The notes beneath the pieces were generated by a model. That model searched no databases and had not been told where the DNA came from. It saw only the letters and a program-made list of their open reading frames with translations. This document shows, in pieces, positions 1 to 55,862 of a stretch of DNA of 64,000 nt (position 1 is its first letter; the number at the start of each line of letters is the position of its first letter). Source of the stretch: Ignavibacteriales bacterium (lineage in GTDB: Bacteria > Bacteroidota > Ignavibacteria > Ignavibacteriales > SURF-24); contig QZKB01000148.1 in assembly GCA_003599415.1 (NCBI GenBank), positions 40,181-104,180 on the forward strand, written 5' to 3'. Both the position numbers and the translations under genes were made by a program.

Positions 1-1913
1 ACAACATCACCCTGGGTGTTAATTTCCGGCAGAAGATTTCTAAAAAAGAAATACCCGTTTGAAAGAGTTTTCATCTCGCGTTCAATTTTATTTCCCTGCG
101 ATAAAGAAAGGCTCCAGATTCTTACAGTTGCGTCTTTAACCGGTTGAGCCTGGTTATCTGCTCTGTAAACATAACCTGCAACACGCGGATTAACAGGTGT
201 AAGATATTTTGTAACGCTCATATTAAATGGAGTATACTCATTTCTGAATACGGCATAATCATTAAAGCTCTGCGGGAACTGATAACTTGAATAAAGCAAT
301 TGGTAATAATATTTACCGCGTGTTGTATCAGTCTCCATTCTAATCCAGTAGCTGTCGTTAGGGCCAATGTTTTTTACAAGCCGGCGGAATTTAATTTCTC
401 CGTTGTCATCAGTTTCACCTTCTGCTAATATTTCATAGCTGCCAAGATTCTCACGAGGCATCTCTGCAGTTCCTTCATCTACAGGAACACCAACAGGACG
501 GTTAATCCTTAGCAGTTTTACATTTACAAATTTCAATGGCGATGTTGTTAACTGACCCTGAACATTTTGTTCGGGCATAACTTTAACTGTCAGTTGGTAA
601 CTTCTGAACGTTGTAAACAATGTTCCGACTTCTCTTGATTCTCCCGGTTGAATAATTAAACTTGTCGTTGGACTTGTGAAATACGGATTATCAACTATAA
701 TCTTGGCAACAATTTTCAAATCGCCGTAATGATGTGTTCCCATTTCGCCGCCGGTATAGTAATCATAGTTGTTCTTAATTACTCCCATTGTTGTTGTATC
801 AACATAAAAGAAATTAAACTTACCCTGATCATCTGTTACTGCAGTTGCAAGAGTAGATTTAATGTCGCTCCAGCTTGATCCGTACAAAGGACCTATGACA
901 TAATTGCCAACTTCTTTTGCAAGAACCAACCTGATGTTAGTATTTTTAAGCGAGCGGGCAGCACCATCACCTGCCTGACCCGACTGATAAAAAATTTCTC
1001 CGCTAACTGTTGTAATTCCCTGCACAACGTCCCAGATTCCACCAGTTACTTTTACTGAAGCAATATCTACATCATCTGATTTGCGGAAATTTTTATCAAA
1101 TAACGCAGGGCTAGATTTGTATTTAAATGTCCATATTTCACTCTTTCCATTGTTAGAAGAAATCGGTTCGTTAGAATCAAGATCAAAAGCCTGTAGTTGC
1201 CATACATAAGTTTTCCCGGATTCAAGGGGGAATGCATCCGGCGGGTACTGCAAAATATTTGATGAGATAATCTGTGCTTCGTGAATAGGGTTATTTGCAC
1301 TTAAGGCTTTCTGCGGAGTTTGCCCGTAAAGCACTTCGCATAATTTGAATTTATAAACAATAGTTACTTCAGGGGGAACAATTACCGGCGTCCATTGAAA
1401 AGCGGGCAGATTTGTAGTAATTGAATCTCCGTTAGCGGGCGCCAATAACTGCGGGGGATCAGGAAGCAGAATTTTAAAATCAGCACAAGCTTCTGTTAAT
1501 TTTGAATTGCCTTTCATTACGTAGATACAGAAAGTATAATTGCCTTCCGGTAATCTACCTGTTCGCGTTACAAAATCTTTGATCTTCGAATTATATTTAA
1601 CTGAATTCCAGTCAAGATAATCAAGCGAAGTAAAAGTCTGCGTAGCCTGGCCGGTAAAAAAACTGATCGTCCGGCTGTTCGCTTTAAGCATTTCACCGGA
1701 TCTGCTTTCACTTATTCTAAGATCCAATGTAATATCCTGCGATGAAGCTCCGGTATAAGTAATTGTAAGAACCGCAACGTTTGGATCTCTTTCCCATCTG
1801 CTTACAAATGGAGATGGATTAGGATTTACAGTAAGCATTGCATTCCATTGCGCATTCATTTCAGAGAAAGCAAGCAGTATTAGTAGAAATGCAATCGTCT
1901 TCATTTTTGTCAT
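1..1913 (-). CDS. Large secreted TANFOR-like/Ig-repeat protein, 3'-truncated by the window edge; N-terminal paralog of 5743..10002
   Basis: Absent from the ORF track (no stop inside the window). Manual translation from ATG at 1913 gives MTKMKTIAFLLILLAFSEMNAQWNAMLTVNPNPSPFVSRWERDPNVAVLTITYTG...YLDWNSVKYN...TGRLPEGNYTFC...ACADF...YKFKLCEVLYGQTPQKAL...LQYPPDAFPLESGKTYVWQLQA...GKSEIWTF. The frame was spot-checked open near 1020-1080 and at the edge (...NGYFFFRNLLPEINTQGDV). Signal peptide present. Confidence 0.85.
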   Translation of the reverse strand, partial: MTKMKTIAFLLILLAFSEMNAQWNAMLTVNPNPSPFVSRWERDPNVAVLTITYTGASSQDITLDLRISESRSGEMLKANSRTISFFTGQATQTFTSLDYLDWNSVKYNSKIKDFVTRTGRLPEGNYTFCIYVMKGNSKLTEACADFKILLPDPPQLLAPANGDSITTNLPAFQWTPVIVPPEVTIVYKFKLCEVLYGQTPQKALSANNPIHEAQIISSNILQYPPDAFPLESGKTYVWQLQAFDLDSNEPISSNNGKSEIWTFKYKSSPALFDKNFRKSDDVDIASVKVTGGIWDVVQGITTVSGEIFYQSGQAGDGAARSLKNTNIRLVLAKEVGNYVIGPLYGSSWSDIKSTLATAVTDDQGKFNFFYVDTTTMGVIKNNYDYYTGGEMGTHHYGDLKIVAKIIVDNPYFTSPTTSLIIQPGESREVGTLFTTFRSYQLTVKVMPEQNVQGQLTTSPLKFVNVKLLRINRPVGVPVDEGTAEMPRENLGSYEILAEGETDDNGEIKFRRLVKNIGPNDSYWIRMETDTTRGKYYYQLLYSSYQFPQSFNDYAVFRNEYTPFNMSVTKYLTPVNPRVAGYVYRADNQAQPVKDATVRIWSLSLSQGNKIEREMKTLSNGYFFFRNLLPEINTQGDV

Positions 1914-1961
1914 AACCTGCTCCGTTAAAATTTCACAGAAACCCGGCTGTAAATTTTTGTA

Positions 1962-3635
1962 TTAAAATTTGTGTGTATAAGTAAAATTAGCTTTATGTTC
2001 ATTAAAGTCTGATGTATTCTTCAGATTATTAAATGATGATCTTAAGTTAAATGAAACCGCATCTGCCGATGTTAATGCATAAGCGGAAGTAAATCCGATT
2101 ACAGTTGACTGTATGCTTTCTGAATTTGTATATCCCAGGGCAACAGAACTTGATAGTTTATTATTGAACATTTTATTGTTTACACGAAAGTTAAATGTTG
2201 ATGTAGAAGTTGTTCCGGTTCTTTCTATATCCAGTATGTTAAACATAATTGAAGGAGAAACCGACCAGTTCGGAGTTATTGTACTTGTTACAGAGAAGAG
2301 AATATTCTGAACATTAACTCCGTTGCCTTTCCTGAAAATATTGTTGTCTTCAGCATTTTGAGTTGTGTAGCTTAAAACGATTACCTGGCTCTGTTTAAAC
2401 ATAAGAAATTGTGAAGTGGCATTAATCATATATGTCGAATTTATATTATCAACTCTGAATGTATCGCTGGACGCATCGTTTTCCATTGAATTAATCATTG
2501 TTCCGAAAGTCAGATTCAATTCATTAATTGGTCTTCCTGTTATTGTAAAATTTATGTTCGACCTTGTCGTAGTGTAAAGTTTCTGTGAAAGGAGATTATC
2601 TGATTGCGTTTGAAAACTTCCCTGTAATGTTAATTTGTTATCGAGCAGCCGAACTCCTGCACCAAAGTTAATAGTCTTTCTGTCATTTATAATTGAAGTT
2701 AAACCCAAAGATGTATAACCCGGATTTATTAATGAGTAACCAAGTTTTGCATTTACGATATCATAATTGAAATCTAACTGAGTGGAGTAAGCGTAATCCA
2801 GGTTGGTAGAAATATTTATTTTATAAAGACTCTTTACTGTTGAAGGTATTTTATCTGTTTCAAGATCATGGCTAAACATATCCCGTGTAAAAATATCTCC
2901 GGCTGCTTCTCCTGTAAATTTGATCATGTTATCGAACAATTTAATTTCAGTATTCATGCCAAGGACAAGATTTTCCTGTGGAGTTACAAGTTGAGCAAAG
3001 GTTGTAGTATCGTTAAATAAATTTCTCGGGAGAGAAGCAACATTATCTCTTACACGGATTACATTCAAATCAAAAAAAGAGGACTCAGGTTTTCCATATC
3101 CGAGTTTAACACCTGTAAGATATCTTGAAAAGACTGAATTATATGGGCCATCATTTATGGCTTTTTGAATTTGTCCACCGACTATTTGAAGCCGCAAGTT
3201 CCATGGATATAACTCAACGCCAGCACCGCGTATATTTACTCCGCTTAAAGTAAGGGGAGAGAACTCATGAGCAAAATCTCCAAGGTGAGCCTTGCCCCAA
3301 CTCCATTCGGGATGAATAGCAAGTTGATTTATTGACTGCCTTGCAGAACTTCCTTCTGTAGATAAAAGTATATCAAATGAAAGATCAAAATTTTCTAAGA
3401 GTGTTAGTGTTGGTCTGAAGAAAATCATACCTGAAGACGAAGGTCGTCTTCGTTCTCTTCCTGAGATTGAATAGAGTTCACCCGATATTCCCGCTTCACC
3501 GGATAACTGAAAATATTTAACTGAGCCCGATGTGCTGTCGGCAATTGAAGGCGGCGATTCGTTTGTTTGTGAAGCTGAATCAATTTGAAGAGAAAGCAGA
3601 ATAAGAAGGGCAACTATATTAATTCTGAACTTCAT
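1962..3635 (-). CDS. Putative outer-membrane beta-barrel protein of unknown function
   Basis: 557 aa; signal peptide; alternating hydrophobic/polar beta-strand pattern throughout; C-terminal ANFTYTHKF ending in Phe (BAM-type beta-signal). Confidence 0.7.
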   Translation of the reverse strand: MKFRINIVALLILLSLQIDSASQTNESPPSIADSTSGSVKYFQLSGEAGISGELYSISGRERRRPSSSGMIFFRPTLTLLENFDLSFDILLSTEGSSARQSINQLAIHPEWSWGKAHLGDFAHEFSPLTLSGVNIRGAGVELYPWNLRLQIVGGQIQKAINDGPYNSVFSRYLTGVKLGYGKPESSFFDLNVIRVRDNVASLPRNLFNDTTTFAQLVTPQENLVLGMNTEIKLFDNMIKFTGEAAGDIFTRDMFSHDLETDKIPSTVKSLYKINISTNLDYAYSTQLDFNYDIVNAKLGYSLINPGYTSLGLTSIINDRKTINFGAGVRLLDNKLTLQGSFQTQSDNLLSQKLYTTTRSNINFTITGRPINELNLTFGTMINSMENDASSDTFRVDNINSTYMINATSQFLMFKQSQVIVLSYTTQNAEDNNIFRKGNGVNVQNILFSVTSTITPNWSVSPSIMFNILDIERTGTTSTSTFNFRVNNKMFNNKLSSSVALGYTNSESIQSTVIGFTSAYALTSADAVSFNLRSSFNNLKNTSDFNEHKANFTYTHKF

Positions 3636-3712
3636 TTTTTGCCTGCAATATAAAGATTAAAATGAATTAACCGCAATAATTATTAATCAGTCTCCGGTAA
3701 ACCTTTCTTTGA

Positions 3713-5701
3713 TTATTTTACTTCAAGCTTTGCCGATTTACTTTCCGAGATGTTCCCTTTCGTATCAAATGCTTTTACTATGTAATAAAAAGTTTTTCCC
3801 AGCGAAATATCTTTATCAACAAAGGTGTTTTCCTTCTGCAACGGACTAATTGCATTGTCAAAATTATCACTTTCATTTTCTTTTCTGAACACAACATAAC
3901 CAAGAAGATTATCGCCTTTTATCTGGGACCATGATAATGATACTTCATTCTTGTTCTTGCTTAATTTTTGAGTAAATCCTTCAACAGCAGGGAAAGTAGT
4001 ATTTATAAAATATTCTGCAGATAAAATATTTGAGCGGACGGATTTATTACCGGCGCTATCAATCGAAATAACACAATAAAAATATATTCCTCCAGCCATC
4101 ATACTATCTTTGTAAGTATCAGTTTCTTTATTTAACTGTATTTTGTTAAGCTGGTTCCATTTTGATGAATCATCCTTTGCGCTTCTGTAAACAAAGTGAC
4201 CGGCAATATCTTCAACAGTACTGCTAACCCATTGAAGCAAAATATAATTATCTGTTAAATCTGCGTTTACTAATTTAGGCGCCGGCGGGGGAGTTAAATC
4301 TTTTAATTTAACATTAACCACATCTGAGTAAGGACTTAAATTATACTTCTTATCAACAGCCACAATTTTATATTGAAAATAATTTCTTGATTCTTTCTTC
4401 AGTGTATCAACATATGAAACTGCATTTACAGGTTTTGGATTAAGCAGAACAAATTCATCTTCCGTATTTGTAACCGAGCGGTAAATAAAATATCCCAACA
4501 AATCTTTCTCCGTTCCTTTTTTCCAGCTTAGTTTAACTAATCCAACTTCGCCAAGTGCTTTAAGATTAACAGGTTTGGCAGGCGCTTCCCAATCCGGAAT
4601 CTGGGCAATTGTACTCAAACTCTGGCTCTTGTTTGAAGAATTATCCTCTGCAGTAAGATAATAATAATATCTTTCTTCGGGGGATGCTATTTTGTCAACA
4701 TAACTTGTATCGGATTTATCAATTAAAGTTTTGTTAATCTTATTATATGGTCCTTTGAAATCTCTGCTTCTGAAAATATTAAATCCTTTCAGGTCTTTTA
4801 CATAAATTGATTTCCATGTAATCTGTACATCATTTTTAATTGCTGTTGCTCTTACTTTTGTTGGTGCAGGCGGAGGAGTTAAATCCTTTGGTGTAACTGC
4901 AATTGTTGCGCTTCTTTTACTTTCCCTGCCAAGATAATCTGTGCCCGTTAACTCGTAGTAATATGTAACTCCGTTTGTAAGTCCGGTATCACTGTAGAAG
5001 AATTCATTTGTATGATAGTTGCCTGCGGAATCCGGAAATTCAAAAACATGAATTGGAGTGTTATTTATTAATGTCTTCCTGGAATTCTGATTTTCTCCGC
5101 GGTAGATGTTATAAACAAAAAATCTATTTTCATCCCGTTCCCAATTAAAATTTACAATTCCGTCTTTGGCAAAAGCATTAAGTTTGTCCGGCGCAGCAGA
5201 AGCAGAATATTTATCAATTTTTACCGGTTCCGAAACAGCAGACAGATTTTCTTTGCTGTCTTTAATCATTACTACTTTATATTCGTAAGTTTTTCCTTCA
5301 ACAATATTTTCATCGTTATATTGCATTCCGTAAGCAAGCGAGAATTTATCGTCGAGAATTCCTTTGGTTAACAAAATAAGCTCATAGGTTTCTCTGTCTT
5401 CACTGTTATCCGGAATGTTATAAATAATTGAGCTTGCAATAGCTAATGAAGTATCCGCAATATCCGGAGAGACTTTCTCTATCTTTTTAATAGGCTCCTG
5501 CGTAAGCTTTGTCCATTCATTTTGATTTTTTTCTCTGCGGAAGAGAACTACACCTTCATCATTAAATTCTTCCGAAGAGAACCATCTTACTTTTACTTTA
5601 CCGGATTCTGTAAGTCCTGCTACTACTCCAAATTCCTGTCCATAGAAATCCGGAGTTATAAACAGAAATAGTAAAACGATAGCTGATATTATTGTTTTCA
5701 T
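3713..5701 (-). CDS. Secreted/periplasmic fibronectin type III repeat protein (about 6 FN3-like modules)
   Basis: 662 aa; signal peptide; repeated PxxP..L/V..W...GYxxYR...YxD...YYY.V.AxD..GNxS modules; no T9SS CTD. Confidence 0.85.
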   Translation of the reverse strand: MKTIISAIVLLFLFITPDFYGQEFGVVAGLTESGKVKVRWFSSEEFNDEGVVLFRREKNQNEWTKLTQEPIKKIEKVSPDIADTSLAIASSIIYNIPDNSEDRETYELILLTKGILDDKFSLAYGMQYNDENIVEGKTYEYKVVMIKDSKENLSAVSEPVKIDKYSASAAPDKLNAFAKDGIVNFNWERDENRFFVYNIYRGENQNSRKTLINNTPIHVFEFPDSAGNYHTNEFFYSDTGLTNGVTYYYELTGTDYLGRESKRSATIAVTPKDLTPPPAPTKVRATAIKNDVQITWKSIYVKDLKGFNIFRSRDFKGPYNKINKTLIDKSDTSYVDKIASPEERYYYYLTAEDNSSNKSQSLSTIAQIPDWEAPAKPVNLKALGEVGLVKLSWKKGTEKDLLGYFIYRSVTNTEDEFVLLNPKPVNAVSYVDTLKKESRNYFQYKIVAVDKKYNLSPYSDVVNVKLKDLTPPPAPKLVNADLTDNYILLQWVSSTVEDIAGHFVYRSAKDDSSKWNQLNKIQLNKETDTYKDSMMAGGIYFYCVISIDSAGNKSVRSNILSAEYFINTTFPAVEGFTQKLSKNKNEVSLSWSQIKGDNLLGYVVFRKENESDNFDNAISPLQKENTFVDKDISLGKTFYYIVKAFDTKGNISESKSAKLEVK

Positions 5702-5742
5702 AGTTTGATATAAATTATTTTCAGCAAATGCTCTTAATTAGT

Positions 5743-8700
5743 TTAAGATGAACATTCATCTTTTAATGCAAAGGAACCATTCTTATATCTTATTTTGAAT
5801 GATGCGCTCCTGCACAACTTACAACCGATTACACAAACTTTAATGCAGGCTTTAGCATCAACTTTGCCTGCAAAGCAAACAGGATCCGGAAACATTACCT
5901 GCATTACAGCATTCATTTCACCTGAAAGAAGACTAAGATAACCGGTGAAAAATTTAACATCTACATATACACCAATTTCTCCGGATGCTGACATTGATGC
6001 TGTACTTACGAACTGAAGCGGTTTATAATAAATTGTGCTGCTCATTCTAATACTTCCTGCTGCTTTTCCATAAAAGCCAAGACCGGCGCCCCACTTTTGC
6101 GGACCGGTATCAAATGTAAAACCTGCAGCAGTTGTCATATAATTCTGGTCGATTGTAAAGTATCCGTAGAAACCCTGTGCGGTACAGAACATCCTTAATG
6201 TAATCGGTTTTTCAGGTGTACCTATGTGAAGATACCACTCGCTTTCGGAAATGTGCATCTGCATTTCTCCGTCTCCGCAAAGCCCGTCCCAGAAGTTTGC
6301 TTCTATAGTACATTGAGAATCAAAGATTTTTGGATTAGTGGAAATAAAGATTGTAGCCGTACCTTTTATCTTGGCGTCCTCCTTCATAAAGCCGCTTGAG
6401 AGTACATAGATTTCGCCGTATAATGTGCTCTGGAAACCATTACCAACACGGATCTCTAAAGCTACCTTTCCCCAGAATTTGGAACCGTCATCGGAAACGG
6501 ATTGAATTGGACACATTGCGTATACGCCGAAAGTATTATTTTTATCGGGCACATAATCGCTTCCAAGAATACCGTCACCTTTATGTTTCATATGAGAATA
6601 GACTCTGCCTGTAAATCCTCTTATACCAATATCCATTACAGTTGTAATTGCAACCGGAAAGATTGCACCAGCTTCAACAAACCAATAGCTGAACCCATTT
6701 CCGTTATCTGTCTTTCCGATAATTATTTTGCTGAATGCGCTGAATTCAGTCGGGTCATGCATAGTCAAATTAAATGATGCAAGAAATCCTTTACCGTAAA
6801 CAGGGTCATCATTGAAGACAATTAACTGGGCGCCAAAGCTGGTTTCACCATTACCGAAATCAACTCCAATCGGTTCTACTTCAACTTCGCTGTTGGGAAC
6901 TTCTGTTCCGCTTTTGCCCAGACTGTACCGGGCAACAACTATACTTGCATCAAAAGGAGAGCCGTTCTGCGAAGATAAATCCTCTGCAACCACAATTGTC
7001 CCGGCAATTCCAAATGCATAATTCGCATATGTCTTTATCCTGAATTTATCCAGCATAATTGGAAAGCCGTTATATTTGCCTGGTTTGGTAACGCTTAAAT
7101 TTATCCAGCCTTCAGGGTCTGAACCAAAAGCAGAAACAGAACCTGTGCTGTCTATGAAGACATTTGAAACGGGAAGTTTCTCTGTCGTTAATCCATCAGT
7201 TCCGGTGCAATCGAATTTAAAATATCCGTTAAGCCAGAAACAGTTTATACCCGCGAGATAAGAAATAGTAACTATCTGCAATTTTAAAGTGCTTTTATCT
7301 CCCGGTTGACCTCCGCTAATTGCAATCCAGTTTGAAATTCCGTCTAACGAGACAATACCGTTTGAGAAACCATTAGAGGTAATATTATAAGTTATGTCAG
7401 CTTCCTTTTTAATAAACGGAATAAATATTTTGCCCTTAAGGAAATTTCCGGAGTTTCTGAATATGGAATTCTTGAGTATGTTGTTTTCATAATTAAGGCT
7501 GAACCGTTTGATGTTGAAAGCATAACCACGGTATGATCCTTCTAAATTAAGATTGTTTTTATGAATATAGCCGTGCAGCCCGGTAGCGATTATTCTGAAG
7601 TTATCTTTATCGTCCAAAGCGATTGGCGGGTAAGTCATCTTTGCCTGATCAAAAAATATCTCTCCCTGTTTTATGCCGACTAACCCGGCATACAAATCAA
7701 CATTTGCTTCTATAAACCTACACCGCACATCATAGTTACTAACAAGTTTAATGTTGATTAAATCGTTGGTTGCCACATCAAGCAGGAATTTAAAATCATT
7801 CTTATTATAAAACCGTAATGCAATTCTCTGCCCGTTTGAATTTTTTACGCTCACGGGTAAAAGTAATTCGCCCTGAAGTTTTAAAGTAAGCTTGTTGGCA
7901 TTTACAAGAAACTCACTCTGCGTCCTTCCGATATTAAGATTGAAATTAAGTGGAGTAAGCATAAAGAAATTATAATCCGTCTTTGGGTAAGCATGCTGGT
8001 TTTGACCTACAGTAATTTTATGAACGGGATCTACATTAAACCAGATCTCACCGGATTCCATTACGAGATTAGCAGAAGAACCTAAATTTTTAACAAGCAG
8101 GCTTGACTTAAAATTAATTGAGCCGAGTAATGTTGCCCTGTCTGGCTCTAATCTTATAGCAGTAGCTTTTAAAAATGAACTGCCAGGAATAGTTAGTTGT
8201 AATGAAATATTGGTTGGTGTAATGCTCGTCCATATTTCACCTTCGTTTACTTTCCATTCCGGAATTTGTCCGGTGGATATTACCTGTTGAAGCTTTAGTC
8301 CGTGAAAATCAAATTGAATTTTTGGTCCTCCGTGCCATAAAAGAACTTCACCTTTACCGCCAAAATAATTTGCGTTCTTATTTGTAATGGAAAGCAAGTT
8401 TACTTTATATTGCCCGATTATAAAATAATTAATGCTGTCAATCAGCGTAACGCCATTTTTAATCGTAAAACTTTCTGCTTCACTAGAAGCAGTTAAACCA
8501 TTATAAGCTTGTGAATAAGTTGTAACCTGCCAGGCATATCTTTGTTTGTCTTTCAGCTTTCCGGTTTCTTCAGGTAAAATATAAGATGACCAGGATGGAG
8601 GAATTTTATCATTATAAAAAACGTAAGGATTTTCTTTAAGTGCCCGGGCTGGAGTTTGTCCTTCATTTATCTCTGCAATCTTCAAACGAAAATTTGTTAT

Positions 8701-10002
8701 TGATTTTACAAGCTTTGAATTATCCCAACTGAAAAGGTATGTCCTGCTGTGAGACTGGCTATGTAAAGTATCAGCTTCAAAATCCGCATTGTCCACAGGT
8801 GATAATAACGGGATAAATTCAACACTGCTTTGTACGGTAAACTTCCAGATGCTGCTTGAATCAATTAATCCTCCCCACGGTTCCGAATAAAGCCAGACAC
8901 GCCAGGCATATTGTTTTTGATTTATTAAACTTCCTTCTTCTTCGGTTATCCAGTACATCGGTTGTGTAGGCAGGATATCATTCTTAAAAAAAACAGGTGG
9001 ATTATTATTCAATGCAGATTCAGCATTCTGCCCCGGTAAAATTTCTGCAATCTTCAACCAGAAATTTGTTATTGTCTTTTTCAGGTTGATTGTTGTCCAT
9101 GTAAACTTGAATGCTTTTGAGTACTGGCTTACCTGGGTTGCTGATAAGGTTGAATTATCAGCGGGTGAAACAAGTTCAACGGTTTTTTCTTCTTTAAATA
9201 TTTTGAATGACCATACTTCACTTTTACCGTCAGTTTTGAATTGTACTACAGAAGGACTGCCTGAACCGCTTACTGCCTGAACCTGCCATGCATATTGTTT
9301 CCCTTCTTCAAGAGGGAGAGCTTCCGGCGGATATTGTAAAATTGTTTGACTTGTAAGAACAGTTTCATAAACAGGCTGATTGGATTGAACAGCTTTCAGC
9401 GGTGTTTGCCCTGGAAGCATTTCACACAATTTAAATTTGTAATCAACAAGTAAAGGCGGAGGAACTTCAACCTGCCACCACTGTAACACGGGCATCGTTG
9501 TGTTAATTACACTCATATGTGTCGGCAAGGATAAAGCGGGCGATCCGGCGAGTATTATTGCAAAATCTGCACACGACTGCGAAAGCATTGTGTTTACCTG
9601 CTTAACTTCAGCGCAGGTTGTATAATCTCCCTCAGGCAAATTACCGGTTTGGACAATTATATTTTTGAAGCTGGCATTATATTTAATTGAATTCCAGTCA
9701 AGGTAATCCATTGTTTGAAAAACCTGGCTTTCACCGGCAGCAAAAAGTATGGTCTTACTACTCGCACTTAATATTTCACCAACACTTTTCTTTGTCACTT
9801 TAAGAAAGATTACAACTTCTTTACTTTCCGTACCTGTATTAGTAATTGTTAATGTTGCAATACCAGGATTATTTTCCCAGCTGGAAATCGTTGGTACAGG
9901 GTAATATGAAGACATGGTTAAGGATGATATCCATTGCTGCGGAGAGGATGTTGATAATAACAGAGTGAGTAAAACTAAAACTGATCGTTTAACCATAATC
10001 AC
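5743..10002 (-). CDS. Large secreted protein: TANFOR-like N-domain, three Ig-like repeats, long beta-rich C-terminal region, Cys-rich tail
   Basis: 1419 aa; signal peptide; GNLPEGDYTTC motif; three repeats of L.SP.DN...F.W...F.LKIAEI..GQ...AL..NP...YAW.V; ends ...CIKVCVIGCKLCRS...DECSS; no T9SS CTD. Confidence 0.7.
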   Translation of the reverse strand: MIMVKRSVLVLLTLLLSTSSPQQWISSLTMSSYYPVPTISSWENNPGIATLTITNTGTESKEVVIFLKVTKKSVGEILSASSKTILFAAGESQVFQTMDYLDWNSIKYNASFKNIIVQTGNLPEGDYTTCAEVKQVNTMLSQSCADFAIILAGSPALSLPTHMSVINTTMPVLQWWQVEVPPPLLVDYKFKLCEMLPGQTPLKAVQSNQPVYETVLTSQTILQYPPEALPLEEGKQYAWQVQAVSGSGSPSVVQFKTDGKSEVWSFKIFKEEKTVELVSPADNSTLSATQVSQYSKAFKFTWTTINLKKTITNFWLKIAEILPGQNAESALNNNPPVFFKNDILPTQPMYWITEEEGSLINQKQYAWRVWLYSEPWGGLIDSSSIWKFTVQSSVEFIPLLSPVDNADFEADTLHSQSHSRTYLFSWDNSKLVKSITNFRLKIAEINEGQTPARALKENPYVFYNDKIPPSWSSYILPEETGKLKDKQRYAWQVTTYSQAYNGLTASSEAESFTIKNGVTLIDSINYFIIGQYKVNLLSITNKNANYFGGKGEVLLWHGGPKIQFDFHGLKLQQVISTGQIPEWKVNEGEIWTSITPTNISLQLTIPGSSFLKATAIRLEPDRATLLGSINFKSSLLVKNLGSSANLVMESGEIWFNVDPVHKITVGQNQHAYPKTDYNFFMLTPLNFNLNIGRTQSEFLVNANKLTLKLQGELLLPVSVKNSNGQRIALRFYNKNDFKFLLDVATNDLINIKLVSNYDVRCRFIEANVDLYAGLVGIKQGEIFFDQAKMTYPPIALDDKDNFRIIATGLHGYIHKNNLNLEGSYRGYAFNIKRFSLNYENNILKNSIFRNSGNFLKGKIFIPFIKKEADITYNITSNGFSNGIVSLDGISNWIAISGGQPGDKSTLKLQIVTISYLAGINCFWLNGYFKFDCTGTDGLTTEKLPVSNVFIDSTGSVSAFGSDPEGWINLSVTKPGKYNGFPIMLDKFRIKTYANYAFGIAGTIVVAEDLSSQNGSPFDASIVVARYSLGKSGTEVPNSEVEVEPIGVDFGNGETSFGAQLIVFNDDPVYGKGFLASFNLTMHDPTEFSAFSKIIIGKTDNGNGFSYWFVEAGAIFPVAITTVMDIGIRGFTGRVYSHMKHKGDGILGSDYVPDKNNTFGVYAMCPIQSVSDDGSKFWGKVALEIRVGNGFQSTLYGEIYVLSSGFMKEDAKIKGTATIFISTNPKIFDSQCTIEANFWDGLCGDGEMQMHISESEWYLHIGTPEKPITLRMFCTAQGFYGYFTIDQNYMTTAAGFTFDTGPQKWGAGLGFYGKAAGSIRMSSTIYYKPLQFVSTASMSASGEIGVYVDVKFFTGYLSLLSGEMNAVMQVMFPDPVCFAGKVDAKACIKVCVIGCKLCRSASFKIRYKNGSFALKDECSS

Positions 10003-10236
10003 TCCAGATAAAAATGACAGGTCTTAAAACATTATTTAGTTTCGAAAATATCCGGACCGGTCACTCTTCATTTCAATTAAAAATACTAACTAATTTAAAC
10101 CGAGTTATATTTGTTTTAAAAAGAGCAACCATCTGTTAATGGCGTCATTCAAAAAATTCCACACGCATTTTATTAAAAAGGAACGGCCGTGTCAAGTAAA
10201 AACTTGGATATCGATGCTTCAAATCACCAAAAAGTT

Positions 10237-13164
10237 TTACTTAATCAAAATCATTTTCTTTGATGCTATATATGAACCTGCCCGCAAGGTGTAAAAATAA
10301 ATTCCACTTGATAAACTGCTTCCATTAAATTCAACATCATATGTCCCGGCAGATAATTCTTTGTTTATTAAGGTGATTATTTCTTTACCAAGAATATTGT
10401 ATATACGTAGAGACGTCATATATGACGTCTCTACCGCTGGTAACGTAAATTTTATTGTTGTGGTTGGATTAAACGGGTTGGGATAATTCTGCTCAAGATT
10501 GAATGTGAGATTTTTGCTGCTTTCAGATTCAAGTAAGGTTGGATTTCCATTTCCATACGCTTCAACTCCAAACCATAATGTTTTTTCATTGCTCAGATCA
10601 AACTCAACTAAAAAATTATTTGGCAAAACCGGGTGATGCATTCTGAATGTTCCCTTTTCCTTGCCTGTATTATCAAGCGGAATCACTTTTAATGAATCTG
10701 CGGACACATTAAGATTCAACACAATTACGGTTGGTTTAATCTGGGTTGGAGTCCTGCCCCAATTATTGTGGAATGTTGTTGTGCCGTCCCAAACCATACC
10801 TGTATTTTGTGTTACAGTAGAAATTGTAATAAGAGATTTATCAGAAACAAAAATTGAATCATCAGTTAACGAAACCCAAGTTATGGTAGCAAAATCATCC
10901 GCACTCTTTATCTGAAGATTGCCTGCTTTGGAATTTATAAAGTTGTTAAGGAAACCGCTTACACCAATAAATTTCTCTGTTGTAACAGTTATCAGACCAT
11001 TTGTATTCCAGATAATTTCATCAGTATCCGACACATAAGGACTTGCCGGTTCCTGCTGGTAAGCTGAAAAATCTGTTGGCGCTGCACTATTAAAAGATTC
11101 ATTCCTGAATGAATGTATTAAAGATAATTTTTTGTTAAAGAAAGAAGGGCCATACCAATCTCCGGTTTCGTACTTCGGTAAGAGATTAATCATTTCATTA
11201 CTGAAGTTTAGTTTAATTGTTTCTTTAGCCGGGGCAATGAAACCATTCCTGTATGCATAAGCGCAGGAAGGTATCAACGCCATTACAGCGTTATTGCGAT
11301 GAATACTAAAATAGCTGTCAACTCTGTCTGCTATCCATTCTGATCCGCCGTTGTAATCGAAATACATTACAGCATCAGTATTATGAAATGATGAATAGGC
11401 TGTAGTAAAAATTAATCCTTCAGTTTGGTAACGGTTAGGGAAGCAGTAATTTATTTCGCTAACAGTAAAAGGTTTACCTACGGAAGCCACACCGGCAAAA
11501 ACAGATGTTGTTCCCGTTGAAGACGATTTTACCATCGGCTCATTTGAAATTAACCAATCTGTTGATGACCAGGGTTCATTAGGAAACTGAGGATGATCCC
11601 AGTATGTATGATTATCAATGTAATCTAATTTAGATTGCGAAACCAAATCACCAGGACCAACATTCCAGTTGGTACCTACAATCGGCACTTTAACCTTAAG
11701 TGTATTTTTTAAGTAATCTTTCATTTCAGCATAAAAGTCATCCTGCAGCTTAATATAGAATGATGAAATATCTGCAATTCTTGCATCGGTATAAGTTACA
11801 CATTCTGTGTAGTCAATCCTTTTTACATTTCTGCTTTCGATTGATTCTCCTGCGATTAAACCTGTCATACCGGTAATACCAAGTTTAATGATGTCAAACC
11901 AATACGTACCAAGATTATTATTAAATGAAAATGATAATCTTCCGGTGTTTATTGTTTCGCTTGCTTTGAAGCTGAAAGAATAAATTTTCCAGTCTGTTGT
12001 AACACCAAAACTTTTAGAGCCGTAAGTAGTGTAAGGGCTATCATCACGCATTATTGAGACGGAAATGGATTTGTTAGCGTCTGTCCTTGCGGCAAATTCA
12101 ACTGTGTAAAGAGAATCTTTTTTTAATTTTATGTTTACCTGCTTCCATTGAATATGCCAGCTTGTGCCTGTTGTTTTTGTTACAGTGATTTTTGCAGATT
12201 TTAATCCTTCATAAGGATTTACAATATCTTTGCTCTGAGAAGCCGAGGCTGATTCGTGCAGTTCAACAATCCAGTTTGAGATTGTTGTGCCTGTTTCAAA
12301 GTTGCCGTCAACAATTTGATTTACAAAGTTTCCGATGCTAGCGCCTGCATTCCAGGCTGCAGCAATGTTTTGAGTAGAGGTATACTTGTCAGATAAAAAT
12401 TTATTCCAGAGGCTATCCAGCATGTGGTTGTGCCGCCAGATTAATTTTCCTCCGTCACCAAATGTTTTTAAATTTCCGTCCCGCCACATTCTGTATAGTG
12501 AATTTTCATTTACAATTTCTACCATTGCCATTACAGGATCATCTACCAATGGAAGGATTGTGTAAGGATTAATGTGAGTTAAAAGCTGTTCAGCATATTC
12601 TTTCTCAAGTTGAATAAGATAAGGATCAAATATAGTTACGCCTTTTGCGTAATCGGGAATTGAATCCGCATACTGAATTCCGTCTGTTACTTTAAACGGT
12701 CTTGATACATTCAGATTCATATTTATATACACGCCGTTTTTCTTCAACTCTGCAATATTGTTTTCAAGCAAATCAAGGTTGAACGGATTGAGCGATCTTG
12801 TATTTACCGCGTCACTAAATAAACTTTTACTGCTCCATGGGTTATCAAGATGATGGAGCCTCATCAGGTTGAATCCCATTTTTCTTATTCGTCCTGCAAT
12901 CATTGCAGCCTTGTTATAATCAGGAAATGCGCCGTCACCTGCCATGTTCCCACCCCAGAATCTTATTCGCTCTTCACCGGATGCAAAATTTCCGTCAGAG
13001 TTAATTGAAATGAAATTTTTTATTTCTTTAACGGGAAATTGCGGCAGGAATTTCTGGGTGGTTGTATCATTCCATGGTAAATTAAAATTAAACCCGTTTG
13101 AAAAGTTTTGTGATAAAATAAAACTGTTCAGAAAAAATATTACAGTAAAAATTTTTTTAATCAT
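10237..13164 (-). CDS. T9SS-secreted clan GH-A glycoside hydrolase with an internal CBM4-like module (GH148-like beta-glucanase)
   Basis: RFWGGN, RLHHLD, acid/base-like NENSL; central CBM4_9-like insert (DGNFE...W...WHIQWKQ...YTVEFAAR...WKIYSFSF...YWFD); IDNHTYWDHP; nucleophile-like VSEINYCFPNRY; T9SS CTD. Confidence 0.7.
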   Translation of the reverse strand: MIKKIFTVIFFLNSFILSQNFSNGFNFNLPWNDTTTQKFLPQFPVKEIKNFISINSDGNFASGEERIRFWGGNMAGDGAFPDYNKAAMIAGRIRKMGFNLMRLHHLDNPWSSKSLFSDAVNTRSLNPFNLDLLENNIAELKKNGVYINMNLNVSRPFKVTDGIQYADSIPDYAKGVTIFDPYLIQLEKEYAEQLLTHINPYTILPLVDDPVMAMVEIVNENSLYRMWRDGNLKTFGDGGKLIWRHNHMLDSLWNKFLSDKYTSTQNIAAAWNAGASIGNFVNQIVDGNFETGTTISNWIVELHESASASQSKDIVNPYEGLKSAKITVTKTTGTSWHIQWKQVNIKLKKDSLYTVEFAARTDANKSISVSIMRDDSPYTTYGSKSFGVTTDWKIYSFSFKASETINTGRLSFSFNNNLGTYWFDIIKLGITGMTGLIAGESIESRNVKRIDYTECVTYTDARIADISSFYIKLQDDFYAEMKDYLKNTLKVKVPIVGTNWNVGPGDLVSQSKLDYIDNHTYWDHPQFPNEPWSSTDWLISNEPMVKSSSTGTTSVFAGVASVGKPFTVSEINYCFPNRYQTEGLIFTTAYSSFHNTDAVMYFDYNGGSEWIADRVDSYFSIHRNNAVMALIPSCAYAYRNGFIAPAKETIKLNFSNEMINLLPKYETGDWYGPSFFNKKLSLIHSFRNESFNSAAPTDFSAYQQEPASPYVSDTDEIIWNTNGLITVTTEKFIGVSGFLNNFINSKAGNLQIKSADDFATITWVSLTDDSIFVSDKSLITISTVTQNTGMVWDGTTTFHNNWGRTPTQIKPTVIVLNLNVSADSLKVIPLDNTGKEKGTFRMHHPVLPNNFLVEFDLSNEKTLWFGVEAYGNGNPTLLESESSKNLTFNLEQNYPNPFNPTTTIKFTLPAVETSYMTSLRIYNILGKEIITLINKELSAGTYDVEFNGSSLSSGIYFYTLRAGSYIASKKMILIK
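10407..10434. repeat. 28-bp perfect GTAG-type REP-like palindrome inside the CTD coding region
   Basis: GTAGAGACGTCATA|TATGACGTCTCTAC is its own reverse complement; encodes VETSYMTSL in frame. Confidence 0.85.
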
Positions 13165-13248
13165 AAATCAGTCGGTAATGTTTAGTTTTGTTCCTGATGT
13201 AAAATTGAATTCCCTGTTCGGACTTAATTATTCTTGTGGTATTTGTAT

Positions 13249-15807
13249 TTATTTCATCAAAACCATTTTTTTCGATTCTATATATGAACCTGCCCGCAAG
13301 GTGTAAAAATAAATTCCGCTTGAAAGGTTACTACCATCAAAATTAACTTCGTATTCTCCTCCCGGATTTTTTTCATTTAAAAGAACAGCAACCTCATTAC
13401 CAAGTATATCAAAAATCTTTAATGTTACATTTTGTAAAGACGGGGCATGCCCCGTCTCTACATGTGGAATTGTAAATTTTATTGTTGTGGTTGGATTAAA
13501 CGGGTTCGGATAATTCTGTGATAAGAAATATTTTTCCGGCTTGTTATTATCAGTTTCATCAACAGAGGTGCCGGTATCATTTTTTCTTCCCGGTGTACCA
13601 TAATTTAAAGAAGCCATCCAGTTGGTGGCAACCGAATTATCACTAAGCGGATCAATTAATGCAAGCGTAGCTCCTGTCCCGTCCGCTTCAACAGGCCATG
13701 GAGAATTATCATCGAAAGTAAGCGAATCAATTATTCCTAAATTCCAGTCGAACAATCTTATTTTTTCTCCGCCGTTGTTCAACCCGAAATTAAAATCGCC
13801 AAGTTTGTTTTTAACTGACGGAAATGCAAGTGAGAACTTTGCTGTATCTCTGCATACAACCAAATAATCATTCGCTTTTATTATTGTGTTGGCAGGAAAA
13901 GCAAATGTGTGAGCATCATCTTCATCTTTAAATATCCAACCGGAAATATCGGCATCAATTGTATCTGTATTGTATAATTCAAACCAGTCTTCACAATCAA
14001 GTTCCGCTGAAGGATTATAATTGATTTCGTTTATTACAACTTTGTTAGTATAATCGCTGTCTGCTTCAAACACTGCTGTAGCAGAAAAAGCGGTTTCGGT
14101 TGGTAATGTAATAGTTTCCTTGTTGCCTCCTTCAATTCCATTCCACTCCTTAAATTTATAACCCGGTTTAGCTATTGCGGTTAATGTTACGGGATTTCCT
14201 TTATAATAGAATCCGTACCATGGAAATGAATTAAGCTCAAGCGAATTTAATTTTATCTTTCCTGCTGTCGCATCGGAAAGATTCAGGTAAACAAGCAACG
14301 TTGAATTAATCTTAAATTGATCTTTAAAAAATCCGGACAGGTAACCGATTCTCTCATCTGCAAATTTTTCAAGTTTTGCTACATTAGCGTTCCAGTTGTC
14401 AATATCGCCGCCCCATCGTTCAATGTGTTCAGGCATTTCCTTTTCAATACCTGTTTTCAACCTTTTGATAACTTTCTTAACGTTCTCTGCTTTAAATATT
14501 GTATTTGAAAAATCTGCAAACCGATTGATAAAACTTGTTTTAAATTCTTCATTAAGCAATAACCGTCTTAATAAGAGAGTAGACCATGGCGGATTTGGCC
14601 AGCTTGGTCCGTTTGCTTCCAAAGCAAATTTCAGAGTATTGTGTGTGGCTCCCTGATTGAAAAGACCGAACCCGAAATCTGTATCGTATAAAATCCATCG
14701 CCACTTGCCGTCGTCTTTCTGCGGTCTCCAGAATTTAATATTGTTACTCGGCCAGTCTGTATTTCCAAAATATATCTCGGCAATTGTATAATTAATAAAC
14801 TCATCCACATCCATTCTTAATTTTACAAACTCATAGTTAAGTTGCTGGCTCATATCTTTCTTGGAAATAAAATCCAGCAGGGCTTTGTAATGAGAATTAC
14901 TTCCTTGTATTACAGTTGCGTTACCTTCAAGAAGGTCAAGACTATCCGGGTTAACGTTGTGGTGCGATGCAAGGTAATGCTCATTTACTTTTTCGCGGAT
15001 GTTATGGATTCCCCAGTACTTTCCGTTCAGGTAAACAATGGCGGGGCGGTAAGCAAGCATATCAATATCTTTATTCCTTACGAGAGTATGCATTAAACCG
15101 TCTCTGAACAAAGTATAACTCCAGTCGTTCCCTCCATTACGGAGAATAAAGCTCTCGAACTTATCAATCTCAAGATCAGGGAAGATTTGATATTTTATTT
15201 TTCCGGTGCCGTAAGTGTTGCGTGCAAAAACAGCAAGTGACTTTTGCGGCTGTGCCCTGCTCCAACCACCAAATATTTTTACTCCTGCATCAATACTAAA
15301 GGCCTGTGTTCCATCCGGTTCATACATTTCAATATGGATTGGCTTTTCCCAATCCTGCCAGAAGTTTGCGCCGAAGTTTGGGTTTGCTGTTTCTGCACTG
15401 TCACCCAGGACGTAGATTCCAAAATCATTATCCCAGAGATTAGGCGGATTTGTTGTAATCGATACGGTTGGCAGATCCGTTGGATTGTTTATTATATATG
15501 TGTTTGTAATTGTATTGCTTGATGTTGTATCATTTAAAAAAGATTTGGCTCTTACAACGGTTGTTTTATTTAAAGTGATTGGCGAATTGTATTTATATGA
15601 TTTTGTTGTCGGCTCTGAGCCGTCGCTTGTAAGATAAATTTTTTCATCCGGTGAGTTTGATGTGATGGACAAGGAAACCGGGACGTTAAATATTCCGCCA
15701 TTGATAGAAAAAACAGGCGGCTGCAACGTTGTATTATTTTGTCCAATGATATTATAGTTTAAAATAACTGTAAGAAAACAAGTAACCGATATTAGAAAAC
15801 TTTTCAT
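13249..15807 (-). CDS. T9SS-secreted CotH-family kinase with N-terminal Fn3-associated/CHB_HEX-like domain and lamin-tail domain
   Basis: YLTSDGSEPT; YLNGKYWGIHNIREK; NTDWPSNN (catalytic-loop-like); YDTDFGFG; LTD motifs VVINEINYN and DWFELYN; T9SS CTD. Confidence 0.85.
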   Translation of the reverse strand: MKSFLISVTCFLTVILNYNIIGQNNTTLQPPVFSINGGIFNVPVSLSITSNSPDEKIYLTSDGSEPTTKSYKYNSPITLNKTTVVRAKSFLNDTTSSNTITNTYIINNPTDLPTVSITTNPPNLWDNDFGIYVLGDSAETANPNFGANFWQDWEKPIHIEMYEPDGTQAFSIDAGVKIFGGWSRAQPQKSLAVFARNTYGTGKIKYQIFPDLEIDKFESFILRNGGNDWSYTLFRDGLMHTLVRNKDIDMLAYRPAIVYLNGKYWGIHNIREKVNEHYLASHHNVNPDSLDLLEGNATVIQGSNSHYKALLDFISKKDMSQQLNYEFVKLRMDVDEFINYTIAEIYFGNTDWPSNNIKFWRPQKDDGKWRWILYDTDFGFGLFNQGATHNTLKFALEANGPSWPNPPWSTLLLRRLLLNEEFKTSFINRFADFSNTIFKAENVKKVIKRLKTGIEKEMPEHIERWGGDIDNWNANVAKLEKFADERIGYLSGFFKDQFKINSTLLVYLNLSDATAGKIKLNSLELNSFPWYGFYYKGNPVTLTAIAKPGYKFKEWNGIEGGNKETITLPTETAFSATAVFEADSDYTNKVVINEINYNPSAELDCEDWFELYNTDTIDADISGWIFKDEDDAHTFAFPANTIIKANDYLVVCRDTAKFSLAFPSVKNKLGDFNFGLNNGGEKIRLFDWNLGIIDSLTFDDNSPWPVEADGTGATLALIDPLSDNSVATNWMASLNYGTPGRKNDTGTSVDETDNNKPEKYFLSQNYPNPFNPTTTIKFTIPHVETGHAPSLQNVTLKIFDILGNEVAVLLNEKNPGGEYEVNFDGSNLSSGIYFYTLRAGSYIESKKMVLMK
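13434..13461. repeat. 28-bp GTAG-type REP-like palindrome (1 mismatch) inside the CTD coding region
   Basis: GTAAAGACGGGGCATGCCCCGTCTCTAC; encodes VETGHAPSL in frame. Confidence 0.85.
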
Positions 15808-15824
15808 GAATGTACACCAGAATT

Positions 15825-16496
15825 TTAAAAATGTTCTTCGTCAAAAAAGAGATTTATGTGCTCAATGCCGACAATATTTTTTAAGTCTCTTAAAAACTCA
15901 TTGTTTTTATCTTTATTCCGCAATTGGACGTAGTAGGACAATTCCAATCCCTCTTCGCTGCCGAGTGATTTAACGTTGATCAGTTTATAGCTTTTACAAT
16001 ATTTCTTTATCACTTTCTGATACGGAACTTCATTTGAATCATCTGTGTAGTAAAACTGCAGCAGGTATTCTTCACGTGTTGAGGGGAGTGAGTTGAACTT
16101 TGACAGTGCAAGCAGAACGACCCCAATAAAGATTGTTCCGGCAATTGCTATCGACAATAATCCAACGCCTGTTGCCATACCGATTGCGAGCGAGTAAAAA
16201 ATAAAAACTATATCGAGAGTATCCTTAACCGCGGTTCTGAATCTTATAATAGACATTGCTCCGACTAATCCAAATGCGCGGGCAAGATTATTTCCTATTA
16301 CCATAATTACGATTGTGGTTATCAGTGACAAGGTAATCAGGGAAATTACAAAGGAATTTGTGTAGCCGGTGCCCTTGTAAGATGTCTTGTAAAAGAAAGC
16401 AATTATTAACCCGCACAAAAACGAAACAATTAAATTTGCAAAGACATCGCCGAACGAAACTGAGAAATTAACAATACCTTGAAATTCCCGGGACAT
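15825..16496 (-). CDS. DUF4956 membrane protein (about 4 TM helices plus a soluble ACT-like C-terminus)
   Basis: Hallmark IGNNLARAFGLVGAMSIIRFRTAVKD; hydrophobic N-half; starts 2 bp after the VTC gene stop. Confidence 0.85.
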   Translation of the reverse strand: MSREFQGIVNFSVSFGDVFANLIVSFLCGLIIAFFYKTSYKGTGYTNSFVISLITLSLITTIVIMVIGNNLARAFGLVGAMSIIRFRTAVKDTLDIVFIFYSLAIGMATGVGLLSIAIAGTIFIGVVLLALSKFNSLPSTREEYLLQFYYTDDSNEVPYQKVIKKYCKSYKLINVKSLGSEEGLELSYYVQLRNKDKNNEFLRDLKNIVGIEHINLFFDEEHF

Positions 16497-16498
16497 TT

Positions 16499-17290: not shown

Positions 17291-17477
17291 TATCCTGTTC
17301 CCAAAGAGAAATTAAAATTTGATTCGTAAACCTTTTCATTTTAGCAGCTGTAAATTTTATTTTACAGAAAAATCCTTTCAATTACCTTTTTACAGGTCTA
17401 ATATAACTAAAAATATGTGTTATATATAATTGAAAAAATCACCCCGATCTCTGCCGCAAAGAATATTATCCGAAATA

Positions 17478-19286: not shown

Positions 19287-19315
19287 AACGGTAAATCCAT
19301 CTGTTATTTATAAAA

Positions 19316-23089: not shown

Positions 23090-23139
23090 ATTTATCCTGC
23101 ATTTAAAATAGATTTTTTGAAAAGGGAACTACTGGAATG

Positions 23140-23187
23140 CAAAAATAGAAGAGGGAGCATGGAATCACAATCGCATGTTCATGGTAT
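23140..23187 (-). promoter_or_regulatory. Promoter with conserved 18-bp box (candidate NarL-family site) and TAnnTTTG element
   Basis: + strand ATCGCATGTTCATGGTAT at 23170-23187; minus-strand TATTTTTG at 23147-23140, 22 bp downstream; same box upstream of three neighbouring genes. Confidence 0.7.
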
Positions 23188-23242
23188 TATGGTGTTTTAA
23201 AAAAACAGTACTTATAAGGAAATTTTAAGGCAGGTTAATTTG

Positions 23243-23270
23243 AAAAAAAAGGGGAGCTTCTGCTCCCCTT
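23243..23270 (-). terminator. Intrinsic terminator after the GDPD gene
   Basis: Stem GGGGAGC/GCTCCCC with 4-nt loop, followed by U8 on the minus strand. Confidence 0.85.
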
Positions 23271-23297
23271 AAATGTGGAAATTAAGTACGGACAAAT

Positions 23298-54187: not shown

Positions 54188-54198
54188 ATGGATATCAA

Positions 54199-55746: not shown

Positions 55747-55800
55747 TGATGTAAAGATGTAAATTATTTTATATTTTTTTTCTTTAAAAAATTAACTTAC

Positions 55801-55816: not shown

Positions 55817-55862
55817 GGCATAATATTTGAGTTTTATCCCGCTTAGTTCACAATGGATAATA

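Follow-up and report, generated by a model that had tools for sequence, protein, structure and literature searches.

Type Vb secretion systems (T5bSS), which comprise two-partner secretion and contact-dependent inhibition (TpsA-TpsB, CdiA-CdiB), place a barrel gene by that of a giant protein with an N-terminal targeting domain and polymorphic toxin ends. A second relevant class, the TANFOR proteins, was described by Jana, Salomon and Bosis in 2020 (PMC7073777). As given in the available text of that paper, 339 TANFOR proteins were identified; about 87% carry Sec signals, and many have toxin domains at the C-terminus and accompanying immunity genes. They were presented there as a polymorphic-toxin class of Bacteroidetes with an unresolved export route, for which secretion by the type IX system (T9SS) was hypothesised. 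Fn3 (COG3401) proteins and T9SS cargo were enriched near TANFOR genes, and a T9SS was present in >95% of TANFOR genomes. Here, we describe a five-gene cluster, read from the sequence of a 64,000-nucleotide stretch (the window; G000:C1:40181-104180, where G000 is the source genome) of an Ignavibacteriales draft assembly with 88.5% completeness and 7.3% contamination. The genes lie on the minus strand in the order giant1, FN3 chain a, barrel, giant2 and FN3 chain b, and their features, in window positions unless marked otherwise, are as follows.

5743..10002, minus strand: giant1, 1419 amino acids (aa) from GTG, with a Sec-type leader, the N-terminal module (N-module), two extra copies of the second half of the module and a ~900-aa beta-rich passenger
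9196..9945, minus strand: N-module of giant1, residues 20-269, with a putative TANFOR-like first half and an FN3/DUF928-like second half
8443..9192, minus strand: two more repeats of the FN3-like second half of the N-module, at about giant1 residues 271-520
5746..8442, minus strand: passenger region of giant1, residues 521-1419
3713..5701, minus strand: FN3 chain a, 662 aa, with a Sec-type leader and FN3-like repeats
1962..3635, minus strand: predicted outer-membrane beta-barrel, 557 aa, 26 predicted strands, C-terminal ...HKF, zero Cys
1..1913, minus strand: giant2, first 637 of 1809 aa, the remainder lying past the window, to G000:C1:36664
1110..1856, minus strand: N-module of giant2, residues 20-268
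G000:C1:34600-36615, minus strand: FN3 chain b, 671 aa, outside the window, 48 bp after giant2

The open reading frames (ORFs) within the window lie at 5743-10002, 3713-5701, 1962-3635 and 3-1913, the last being open at the window edge; when read in the contig, giant2 runs 3.5 kb past the left edge. The gaps computed from these coordinates (41 bp between giant1 and chain a, 77 bp between chain a and the barrel, and 48 bp between the barrel and giant2) agree with the co-oriented genes and 41-77 bp spacing given in an earlier prediction made from the sequence alone (the original prediction). The four-gene operon proposed there holds for the four genes that it named, but a fifth gene, FN3 chain b, belongs to the series, and the fourth gene encodes 1809 aa. 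The probable start of giant1 is the ATG at 9996; the database copy is 1417 aa, two codons shorter than the GTG form. The FN3 chains are paralogues along their full length (23% identity, E 4e-16, BLAST), and the locus therefore reads as two giant and FN3 pairs around one barrel. A charged and then hydrophobic, Sec-like stretch stands at the start of all five proteins, as read from the sequence without a signal-peptide program, in line with the signal peptides claimed previously. On inspection of the sequences, a canonical lipobox was absent from all five.

We consider it probable on balance that the cluster specifies a plug-in-barrel system of the outer membrane, dedicated to the export or display of TANFOR-class giants with interchangeable passengers. 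In such a system, Sec would deliver each giant to the periplasm, and the conserved ~250-aa N-module, with its TANFOR-like and FN3-like domains, would dock in the lumen of the co-encoded 26-strand barrel. Docking would anchor the giant at the outer membrane and/or initiate translocation, the variable remainder of the protein being the passenger. Each FN3-chain protein may be a dedicated accessory of its giant, such as a periplasmic escort or a co-displayed stalk, and one barrel would serve two paralogous giant and FN3 pairs in this genome. Export or display, the side of the membrane on which the passenger lies, and the roles of the FN3 and TPR-like proteins are the parts of this scheme that we infer.

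The linkage of these genes was observed well beyond the window. A scan with the barrel alignment against one genome per species yielded 80 loci with 10-kb flanks, from Ignavibacteria, Melioribacteraceae, Bacteroidota, Kryptoniota, Zixibacteria, Calditrichota, Gemmatimonadota and Balneolaceae. An FN3-chain homologue was found in 64 of the 80 loci and, by BLAST and iterated hidden Markov models (HMMs), an N-module giant in 39, with giant, FN3, barrel or barrel, giant, FN3 as the common gene orders. The giant ORF was cut at the flank limit in many of the remaining loci; five such genomes were searched whole, and the module was present in all five. By coordinates, it stood at the start of the cut giant in three of them (L002, L010 and L032; 3876, 4305 and 3954 aa, respectively). 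In L006 the contig ends inside the giant, and in L038 the module was present without a resolved position at the locus.

We also analysed 401 evenly sampled genomes of the phylum, leaving out barrel rows weaker than 1e-30 and a duplicate G123 gene match. For 77 of the 85 barrel matches at E ≤ 1e-30, an N-module lies no more than 17 kb away on the same contig and strand (57 within 2 kb); 56 of these modules are downstream of the barrel and 21 upstream. The module was present in 63/64 genomes having a strong barrel match. All ten of the loci that were fetched had, in this order, the barrel, an N-module giant (1821-4141 aa) and an FN3 chain, and the trio was also found in Zixibacteria, Gemmatimonadota and Calditrichota. 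The co-occurrence of the genes in other genomes, on which the original prediction depended, was thus borne out. Three genomes carried natural fusions, in which barrel ORFs of 949-1044 aa have N-module-like domains N-terminal to the barrel (L093:1925-4789 on the minus strand, G326:C31 and G402:C53); at the level of sequence, these fusions provide independent support for a module-barrel association. The linker of one fusion was read and contains two copies of a ~15-residue piece matching EF-Tu models (E 5e-9).

The accessory genes showed a recurrent pattern. FN3 chain a has a Pfam fn3 hit (E 2e-7) and five FN3 stretches in one NCBIfam match, and about six or seven repeats are estimated from its length and linkers; both chains hit fn3. 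Loci with a giant of ~4000 aa (six of the ten fetched) carry an extra conserved protein of ~680-700 aa with a Sec-type leader, homologous to the extra gene of the L002-type loci. By eye, this ~690-aa protein appears alpha-helical and TPR-like (loci L095-L098, L101, L102, L002, L003, L005, L009 and L013). No counterpart was found beside the cluster in the window, and elsewhere in G000 there were generic weak matches only.

The barrel itself has no Pfam, NCBIfam or PDB sequence match, the PDB having been searched with the family profile. A search of 5.8 billion proteins returned 201 homologues, none with a Pfam domain and the named ones all 'hypothetical protein', with source names from Ignavibacteria, Chlorobi/Chlorobiota, Kryptoniota, Zixibacteria and metagenome-assembled genomes of Bacteroidota. 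None of the 30 clusters closest to the barrel in the Protein Atlas has a name; the closest that does is DUF6029, at 0.93. The AlphaFold2 model, from an alignment of 32 homologues, has a pLDDT of 85.8 and predicts 26 strands from residue 42 to the C-terminal ...THKF. Short turns alternate with long loops in the model, which begins right after the leader and has no plug and no extra or periplasmic domain. The 557-aa protein had previously been called a barrel with a terminal-Phe signal, and both the terminus and the all-beta barrel model are in agreement.

Foldseek placed MtrB first (6r2q_B, E 6.7e-9, TM 0.43) and FimD ushers second. The comparison with representative structures by VIA-align also gave MtrB as the best match (Z 21.6, 457 residues, root-mean-square deviation 5.0), the next match having a Z of 16.6; further matches were SusC-like and TonB-dependent barrels and porins (Z 12-16) and FimD/usher (Z 13-15). 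A predicted 26-strand barrel enclosing a separate protein resembles the arrangement of MtrAB and LptDE. However, there is no sequence relation to MtrB-PioB, the five cluster proteins contain zero CxxCH haem motifs, no OstA or LptD domain was found by Pfam or NCBIfam, and the enclosed partner here would be the end of a giant multidomain protein. The chaperone-usher systems (FimD, PapC) similarly have a large barrel handling Ig-like domains, and the fused forms are reminiscent of an usher that has a plug of its own; ushers, though, have 24 strands, no usher or PapD-like chaperone hit was obtained with Pfam, and the giants are single polypeptides, not polymerised subunits. The likeness to T5bSS lies in the logic of a targeting domain, a dedicated barrel and a polymorphic passenger; the parts themselves are not homologous to those of T5bSS, MtrAB or LptDE. 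In contrast to T5bSS, no TPS, POTRA or Omp85 family was detected (Pfam E ≤ 0.1), the barrel has 26 predicted strands vs 16, the module is predicted to remain in the lumen, and there is an additional FN3-chain partner, plus a TPR partner in the ~4000-aa class. FhaC and CdiB were not among the top 50 fold matches of the barrel by VIA-align, which is a weak test alone. The cluster shows none of the defining features of the known systems with which it was compared.

The SusC-like, TonB-dependent and porin matches could also be consistent with uptake of the SusCD kind, in which solutes or polymers would pass through a barrel lumen gated by the module, with the giants and FN3 chains binding the substrate at the surface. 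CarboxypepD_reg-type beta-sandwiches in the giants, which are common in such loci, and the glycan- and phosphate-active enzymes encoded nearby point the same way. However, Pfam revealed neither a TonB box nor a plug or SusD-like partner, toxin domains occur among the passengers of relatives, and no catabolic genes are conserved with the trio across loci. We regard uptake as very unlikely.

Weak matches of the barrel profile (E 1e-9 to 1e-20) also fall on portions of ORFs 800-950 aa long, e.g., L091:1915-4653 on the minus strand, and others in L090-L092 and L094. Five of these weak-match ORFs were fetched and had zero Pfam or NCBIfam families; the suggestion that they are LptD is not supported, and on sequence they may belong to a broader barrel superfamily that has no name yet. 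In one family of the phylum, 55 of the 61 genomes had barrel matches when those of any strength are counted.

To return to the export or display system, the placement of the module in the barrel was addressed by complex prediction with custom alignments of both partners, using three runs and three controls. The ipSAE of barrel and module was 0.85, 0.85 and 0.80 vs 0.00 in all three controls; in the calibration of the tool, the mark was reached by 58 of 80 solved complexes and by 2 of 110 mismatched pairs. The runs had at least 90% contact agreement, with about 200 contacts, all of low expected error, and a partner pLDDT of at least 84. On the barrel, the interface comprises every second, lumen-facing residue in the outer halves of many strands, together with loops L1-L3 and L5-L10. 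When set against the strand map, this alternate-residue and loop pattern places the partner inside the lumen, beneath the extracellular loops. The lowest-error pairs join barrel residues 304-306 and 349-353 (conserved P-G-Y and N..QK, in loops L7 and L8) with module residues 96-106 (invariant G..PEG). Conserved barrel positions were enriched at the predicted interface (19 vs 11.2 expected, p 0.008). As neither chain has a PDB sequence relative, the high score probably does not reflect a solved complex already known to the model. The N-module is accordingly modelled, and so predicted, to sit in the barrel lumen; this placement (ipSAE 0.85) and the genomic linkage both favour that part of the original prediction in which the module may be an export or assembly tag recognised by the co-encoded barrel.

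The N-termini of the two giants share 117/263 identities (44%, E 5e-72, residues ~5-267, BLASTP), and all five motifs previously quoted for the ~270-aa paralogous region are present in the alignment. The claim that the giants diverge completely thereafter was correct in that BLAST found no other similarity between the full-length proteins, but beyond residue ~270 they still align, solely where the module's second half is repeated internally (E 1e-4, BLASTP). Positions 128-228 of the N-module profile also match G000:C1:49073-49387 and 48686-48925, which are the extra giant1 copies. In the module alignment, a G..PEG.Y motif is invariant and a pair of Cys is conserved. The first 269 residues of giant1 were used as the query of an exhaustive HMMER search, in which 3497 cluster representatives passed E ≤ 1e-3; 1285 of these passed 1e-10 and 157 passed 1e-30. 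Among the best 150 of the 3497, the proteins range from 239 to 5070 aa and the module is N-terminal in nearly all, consistent with the interchangeable passenger regions originally proposed. The searches support the view of the N-module as a family-wide N-terminal signature in front of very different downstream regions. Because it heads toxins as well as giants of all sizes, the module behaves like a trafficking or anchoring domain with interchangeable passengers.

The relationship of the module to TANFOR is remote. The TIGR02542 (TANFOR) model gave 12.6 bits on giant2 (E 0.096; cut-off 67) and no hit on giant1, and the cut-off was reached in none of the 401 genomes of the phylum; at least 6 of the 11 sub-threshold matches in these genomes coincide with a listed module match, in its first half. 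Pedobacter proteins of ~2430 aa, named 'TANFOR domain-containing' by their source, match giant2 at E 1e-10 to 3.5e-10 in the search of 5.8 billion proteins. The homology extends across the module (E 5e-17) and, at E 1e-49, across the C-terminal ~900 residues with their Cys-rich end, and these Pedobacter proteins themselves score just 27-28 bits on TIGR02542. On account of the Pedobacter homology and the sub-threshold overlap on its first half, the N-module is regarded, on sequence grounds, as a remote TANFOR-like domain followed by an FN3/DUF928-like domain. The earlier label of TANFOR-like thus stands as remote homology, but the family cut-off is missed.

A check against DUF928 and DUF6603 had also been proposed: DUF928 (PF06051) gave 14.4 and 13.6 bits on the second half of the module (E 0.03-0.06), below its gathering score of 26, and DUF6603 (PF20248) had zero Pfam hits at E ≤ 0.1 in the cluster proteins. 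A Protein Atlas feature search returned a DUF6603 cluster at 0.82, beneath the reliable level of the tool. There was no significant Pfam or NCBIfam family on giant1, one CarboxypepD_reg domain on giant2 (E 6e-14, Pfam), and chance-level hits at most in the PDB sequence search with the N-module profile and giant1.

The cluster nonetheless shares with the TANFOR toxins, as described in the available text of PMC7073777, large Sec-signal proteins with a conserved N-terminal domain and variable C-termini, Fn3 (COG3401) neighbours and T9SS cargo nearby; the window echoes that neighbourhood, with T9SS cargo and Fn3 proteins beside the giants. Giant2 is, in addition, homologous to the TANFOR-named Pedobacter proteins over the N-module and the last ~900 aa. 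The differences are that the cluster giants lie under the TIGR02542 cut-off and have no detectable toxin domain or downstream immunity gene, and that the family here extends to Gemmatimonadota, Zixibacteria and Calditrichota, whereas the available text of PMC7073777 proposes T9SS export. The original prediction knew of no characterised function for this architecture; this holds for the family-less barrel, but the N-terminal domain class had been described in 2020 as polymorphic toxins (PMC7073777, available text).

The passengers themselves were mostly without recognisable families. Searches with the giant1 passenger identified 22 relatives at E 1e-141 or better (33-100% identity, 1017-1426 aa), all unnamed or 'hypothetical', and with a Pfam domain in one only (PF06051). 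The last 900 residues of giant1 thus mark a small, unannotated family of proteins of ~1260-1426 aa. The last 80 residues contain six Cys in giant1 and nine in giant2, and many, not all, relatives are also Cys-rich at the tail. The last 400 aa of the two giants were not linked by BLAST or iterated HMMs; hhalign of the last 350 aa gave a probability of 42% (E 2.7e-4). The last 850 aa of giant2 have an all-beta AlphaFold2 model (pLDDT 80.8, pTM 0.52). The Foldseek matches to this model (LptD, Rhs/Tc shells) had a TM of only about 0.1 and were unusable, and the Protein Atlas returned nothing reliable for the tail. VIA-align matched only its residues 565-850 (~285 residues), and these to many tied structures (Z 9-13), namely outer-membrane barrels, porins and autotransporter translocators; the long strands are amphipathic, as those of a membrane barrel or of a soluble beta-domain alike would be. 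From the model, the C-terminal ~285 residues of giant2 may form a barrel-like terminal domain.

No toxin family was found in either giant at E ≤ 0.1 (Pfam), and no immunity gene lies downstream, where FN3 chains are present instead; similarly, a toxin domain was found in none of ten sampled barrel-linked giants (last 600 aa). Toxin domains are present in other module relatives. The 1726-aa relative at L105:8925-15707 has a C-terminal colicin/pyocin DNase domain (E 3.9e-41), and the 1057-aa relative L107 has a C-terminal deaminase domain (E 3.5e-8). About 590 bp after the L105 toxin gene is a short, barrel-like ORF of 336 aa, which matches part of the barrel profile only, and the ~590-bp gap may contain a small immunity gene.

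These toxin-tipped relatives bear on a second explanation, a periplasm-facing complex in which the module plugs the barrel from the periplasm (like the plug of a TonB-dependent transporter, LptE or MtrA) and the giants and FN3 chains are periplasmic structural or gating parts, with no export. The fusions favour this arrangement, as they put the module N-terminal to the barrel, in the plug-then-barrel order of TonB-dependent transporters, and an MtrB-like fold is the sheath of a periplasmic partner. A canonical T. forsythia TANFOR protein is also listed as predicted periplasmic in a vesicle proteome table in the available text of PMC10682907. However, module relatives end in nuclease or deaminase toxin domains, and the available text of PMC7073777 reports many with immunity genes; such toxins must leave the cell to act, and therefore count against a purely periplasmic role. 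Furthermore, the predicted contacts involve the upper strand halves and the extracellular loops, and none involve the periplasmic turns. We consider this explanation rather unlikely, and give it that much weight since the fused forms suit a periplasm-facing plug equally.

A third explanation follows from the genes upstream of the cluster, which are listed below.

10237-27125, minus strand: five T9SS cargo neighbours, namely a CBM4_9 protein; CotH kinase + lamin-tail; GH16 + malectin; metallophosphatase + laminin-G; and GDPD + laminin-G
15825-17290, minus strand: VTC-domain + DUF4956 pair, amid the T9SS cargo genes

Directly upstream, at 10237-27125, there are seven further minus-strand genes, five of which (10237-15807 and 17478-27125) have a Por_Secre_tail. 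With the cluster directly downstream of these genes, the giants could be non-canonical T9SS substrates, as hypothesised in the available text of PMC7073777, and the barrel merely a site of surface attachment or shuttling after the T9SS. The cargo enrichment and the T9SS in >95% of TANFOR genomes reported there are consistent with this. However, a T9SS tail (Por_Secre_tail, CHU_C) was found in 0/5 cluster proteins at Pfam E ≤ 0.1, with the five upstream neighbours as the positive control, and in 0/55 giant C-termini. The first of these results upholds the earlier observation that the three complete genes have no T9SS C-terminal domain, unlike most large secreted proteins in the window. The gene-by-gene linkage is to the barrel, not to any T9SS component, and the module is N-terminal, whereas the T9SS signal is C-terminal. 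A role as non-canonical T9SS substrates is thus unlikely.

Several findings weigh against the plug-in-barrel export or display system that we favour. Eight of the 85 strong barrels had no listed N-module nearby, and the short toxin-tipped relatives L106 and L107, both in one genome, were without a barrel in the stretch examined. No toxin or adhesin domain can be recognised in either cluster giant. Directly upstream are T9SS cargo genes, as they are around TANFOR genes in the available text of PMC7073777, which leaves some weight on a T9SS link. Conserved N-module positions were not enriched at the predicted interface (11 vs 10.6 expected), and the complex score is a measure of model confidence, with a calibration that is only rough for custom alignments. 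Finally, a fusion needs the C-terminus of the module to be led back to the periplasmic start of the barrel, so that a periplasm-facing plug fits the fusions as well as export does.

The cargo class was known beforehand from one paper; the barrel partner, the conserved barrel-giant-FN3(-TPR) operon, the spread beyond Bacteroidota and the predicted plug-in-barrel complex are new in the searchable literature. The words 'barrel' and 'porin' have zero occurrences in the available text of PMC7073777, where the neighbourhood test was restricted to known domains, and the barrel is without any such domain. A literature search found no paper tying TANFOR proteins to a barrel, although the supplements of PMC7073777, which lay outside the search, might list it as an unnamed neighbour. 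More tentatively, and with rather less confidence than for the cluster itself, we suggest that these loci represent an unrecognised outer-membrane export pathway of the FCB (Fibrobacteres-Chlorobi-Bacteroidetes) superphylum that operates without the T9SS. A family-less barrel with a TANFOR-like module in its lumen and FN3/TPR accessories would export or display toxins and adhesin-like giants, and would be the missing route of the TANFOR toxins.

The question of TANFOR export gains a concrete candidate in a family-less, conserved barrel gene that lies beside the giants in many genomes. There are homologues in culturable genera, the Pedobacter giants being full-length relatives of giant2, and the predicted interface is explicit, between barrel loops L7 and L8 and the G..PEG motif of the module. 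If correct, the proposal would describe a novel type of machine for handling proteins at the outer membrane, account for the way in which some of the largest proteins of Ignavibacteria, Bacteroidota, Gemmatimonadota and Zixibacteria arrive at or attach to the surface, and, for these phyla, provide an N-terminal surface-display tag that is portable.

The best promoter match lies in the gap of 235 bp upstream of giant1.

10167..10195, minus strand: best sigma-70-like promoter match, TTGACA-17-TAAAAT, 11/12

The promoter and terminator site counts were those of shuffled sequences, and the consensus used was sigma-70-like, with Bacteroidota-type promoters outside its coverage. No minus-strand terminator-like site was found at 1-10400 by the same scan, which performed no better than shuffles. 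A 158-bp gap follows FN3 chain b, and then unrelated metabolic genes. The downstream ORFs at L001:7671-10441 (G000:C1:31671-34441) appear by eye, without a family search, to encode RbsD-like and ribokinase-type sugar kinase-like proteins, and the same stretch has a protein resembling a cobalamin-binding domain beside a Cys-rich partner, also by eye; all of these ORFs look unrelated to the cluster. At the other end of the window (~54000-64000), the GC skew changes from negative to positive (+0.10 to +0.17) at about 56 kb, which could reflect a switch in gene orientation or a replication landmark.

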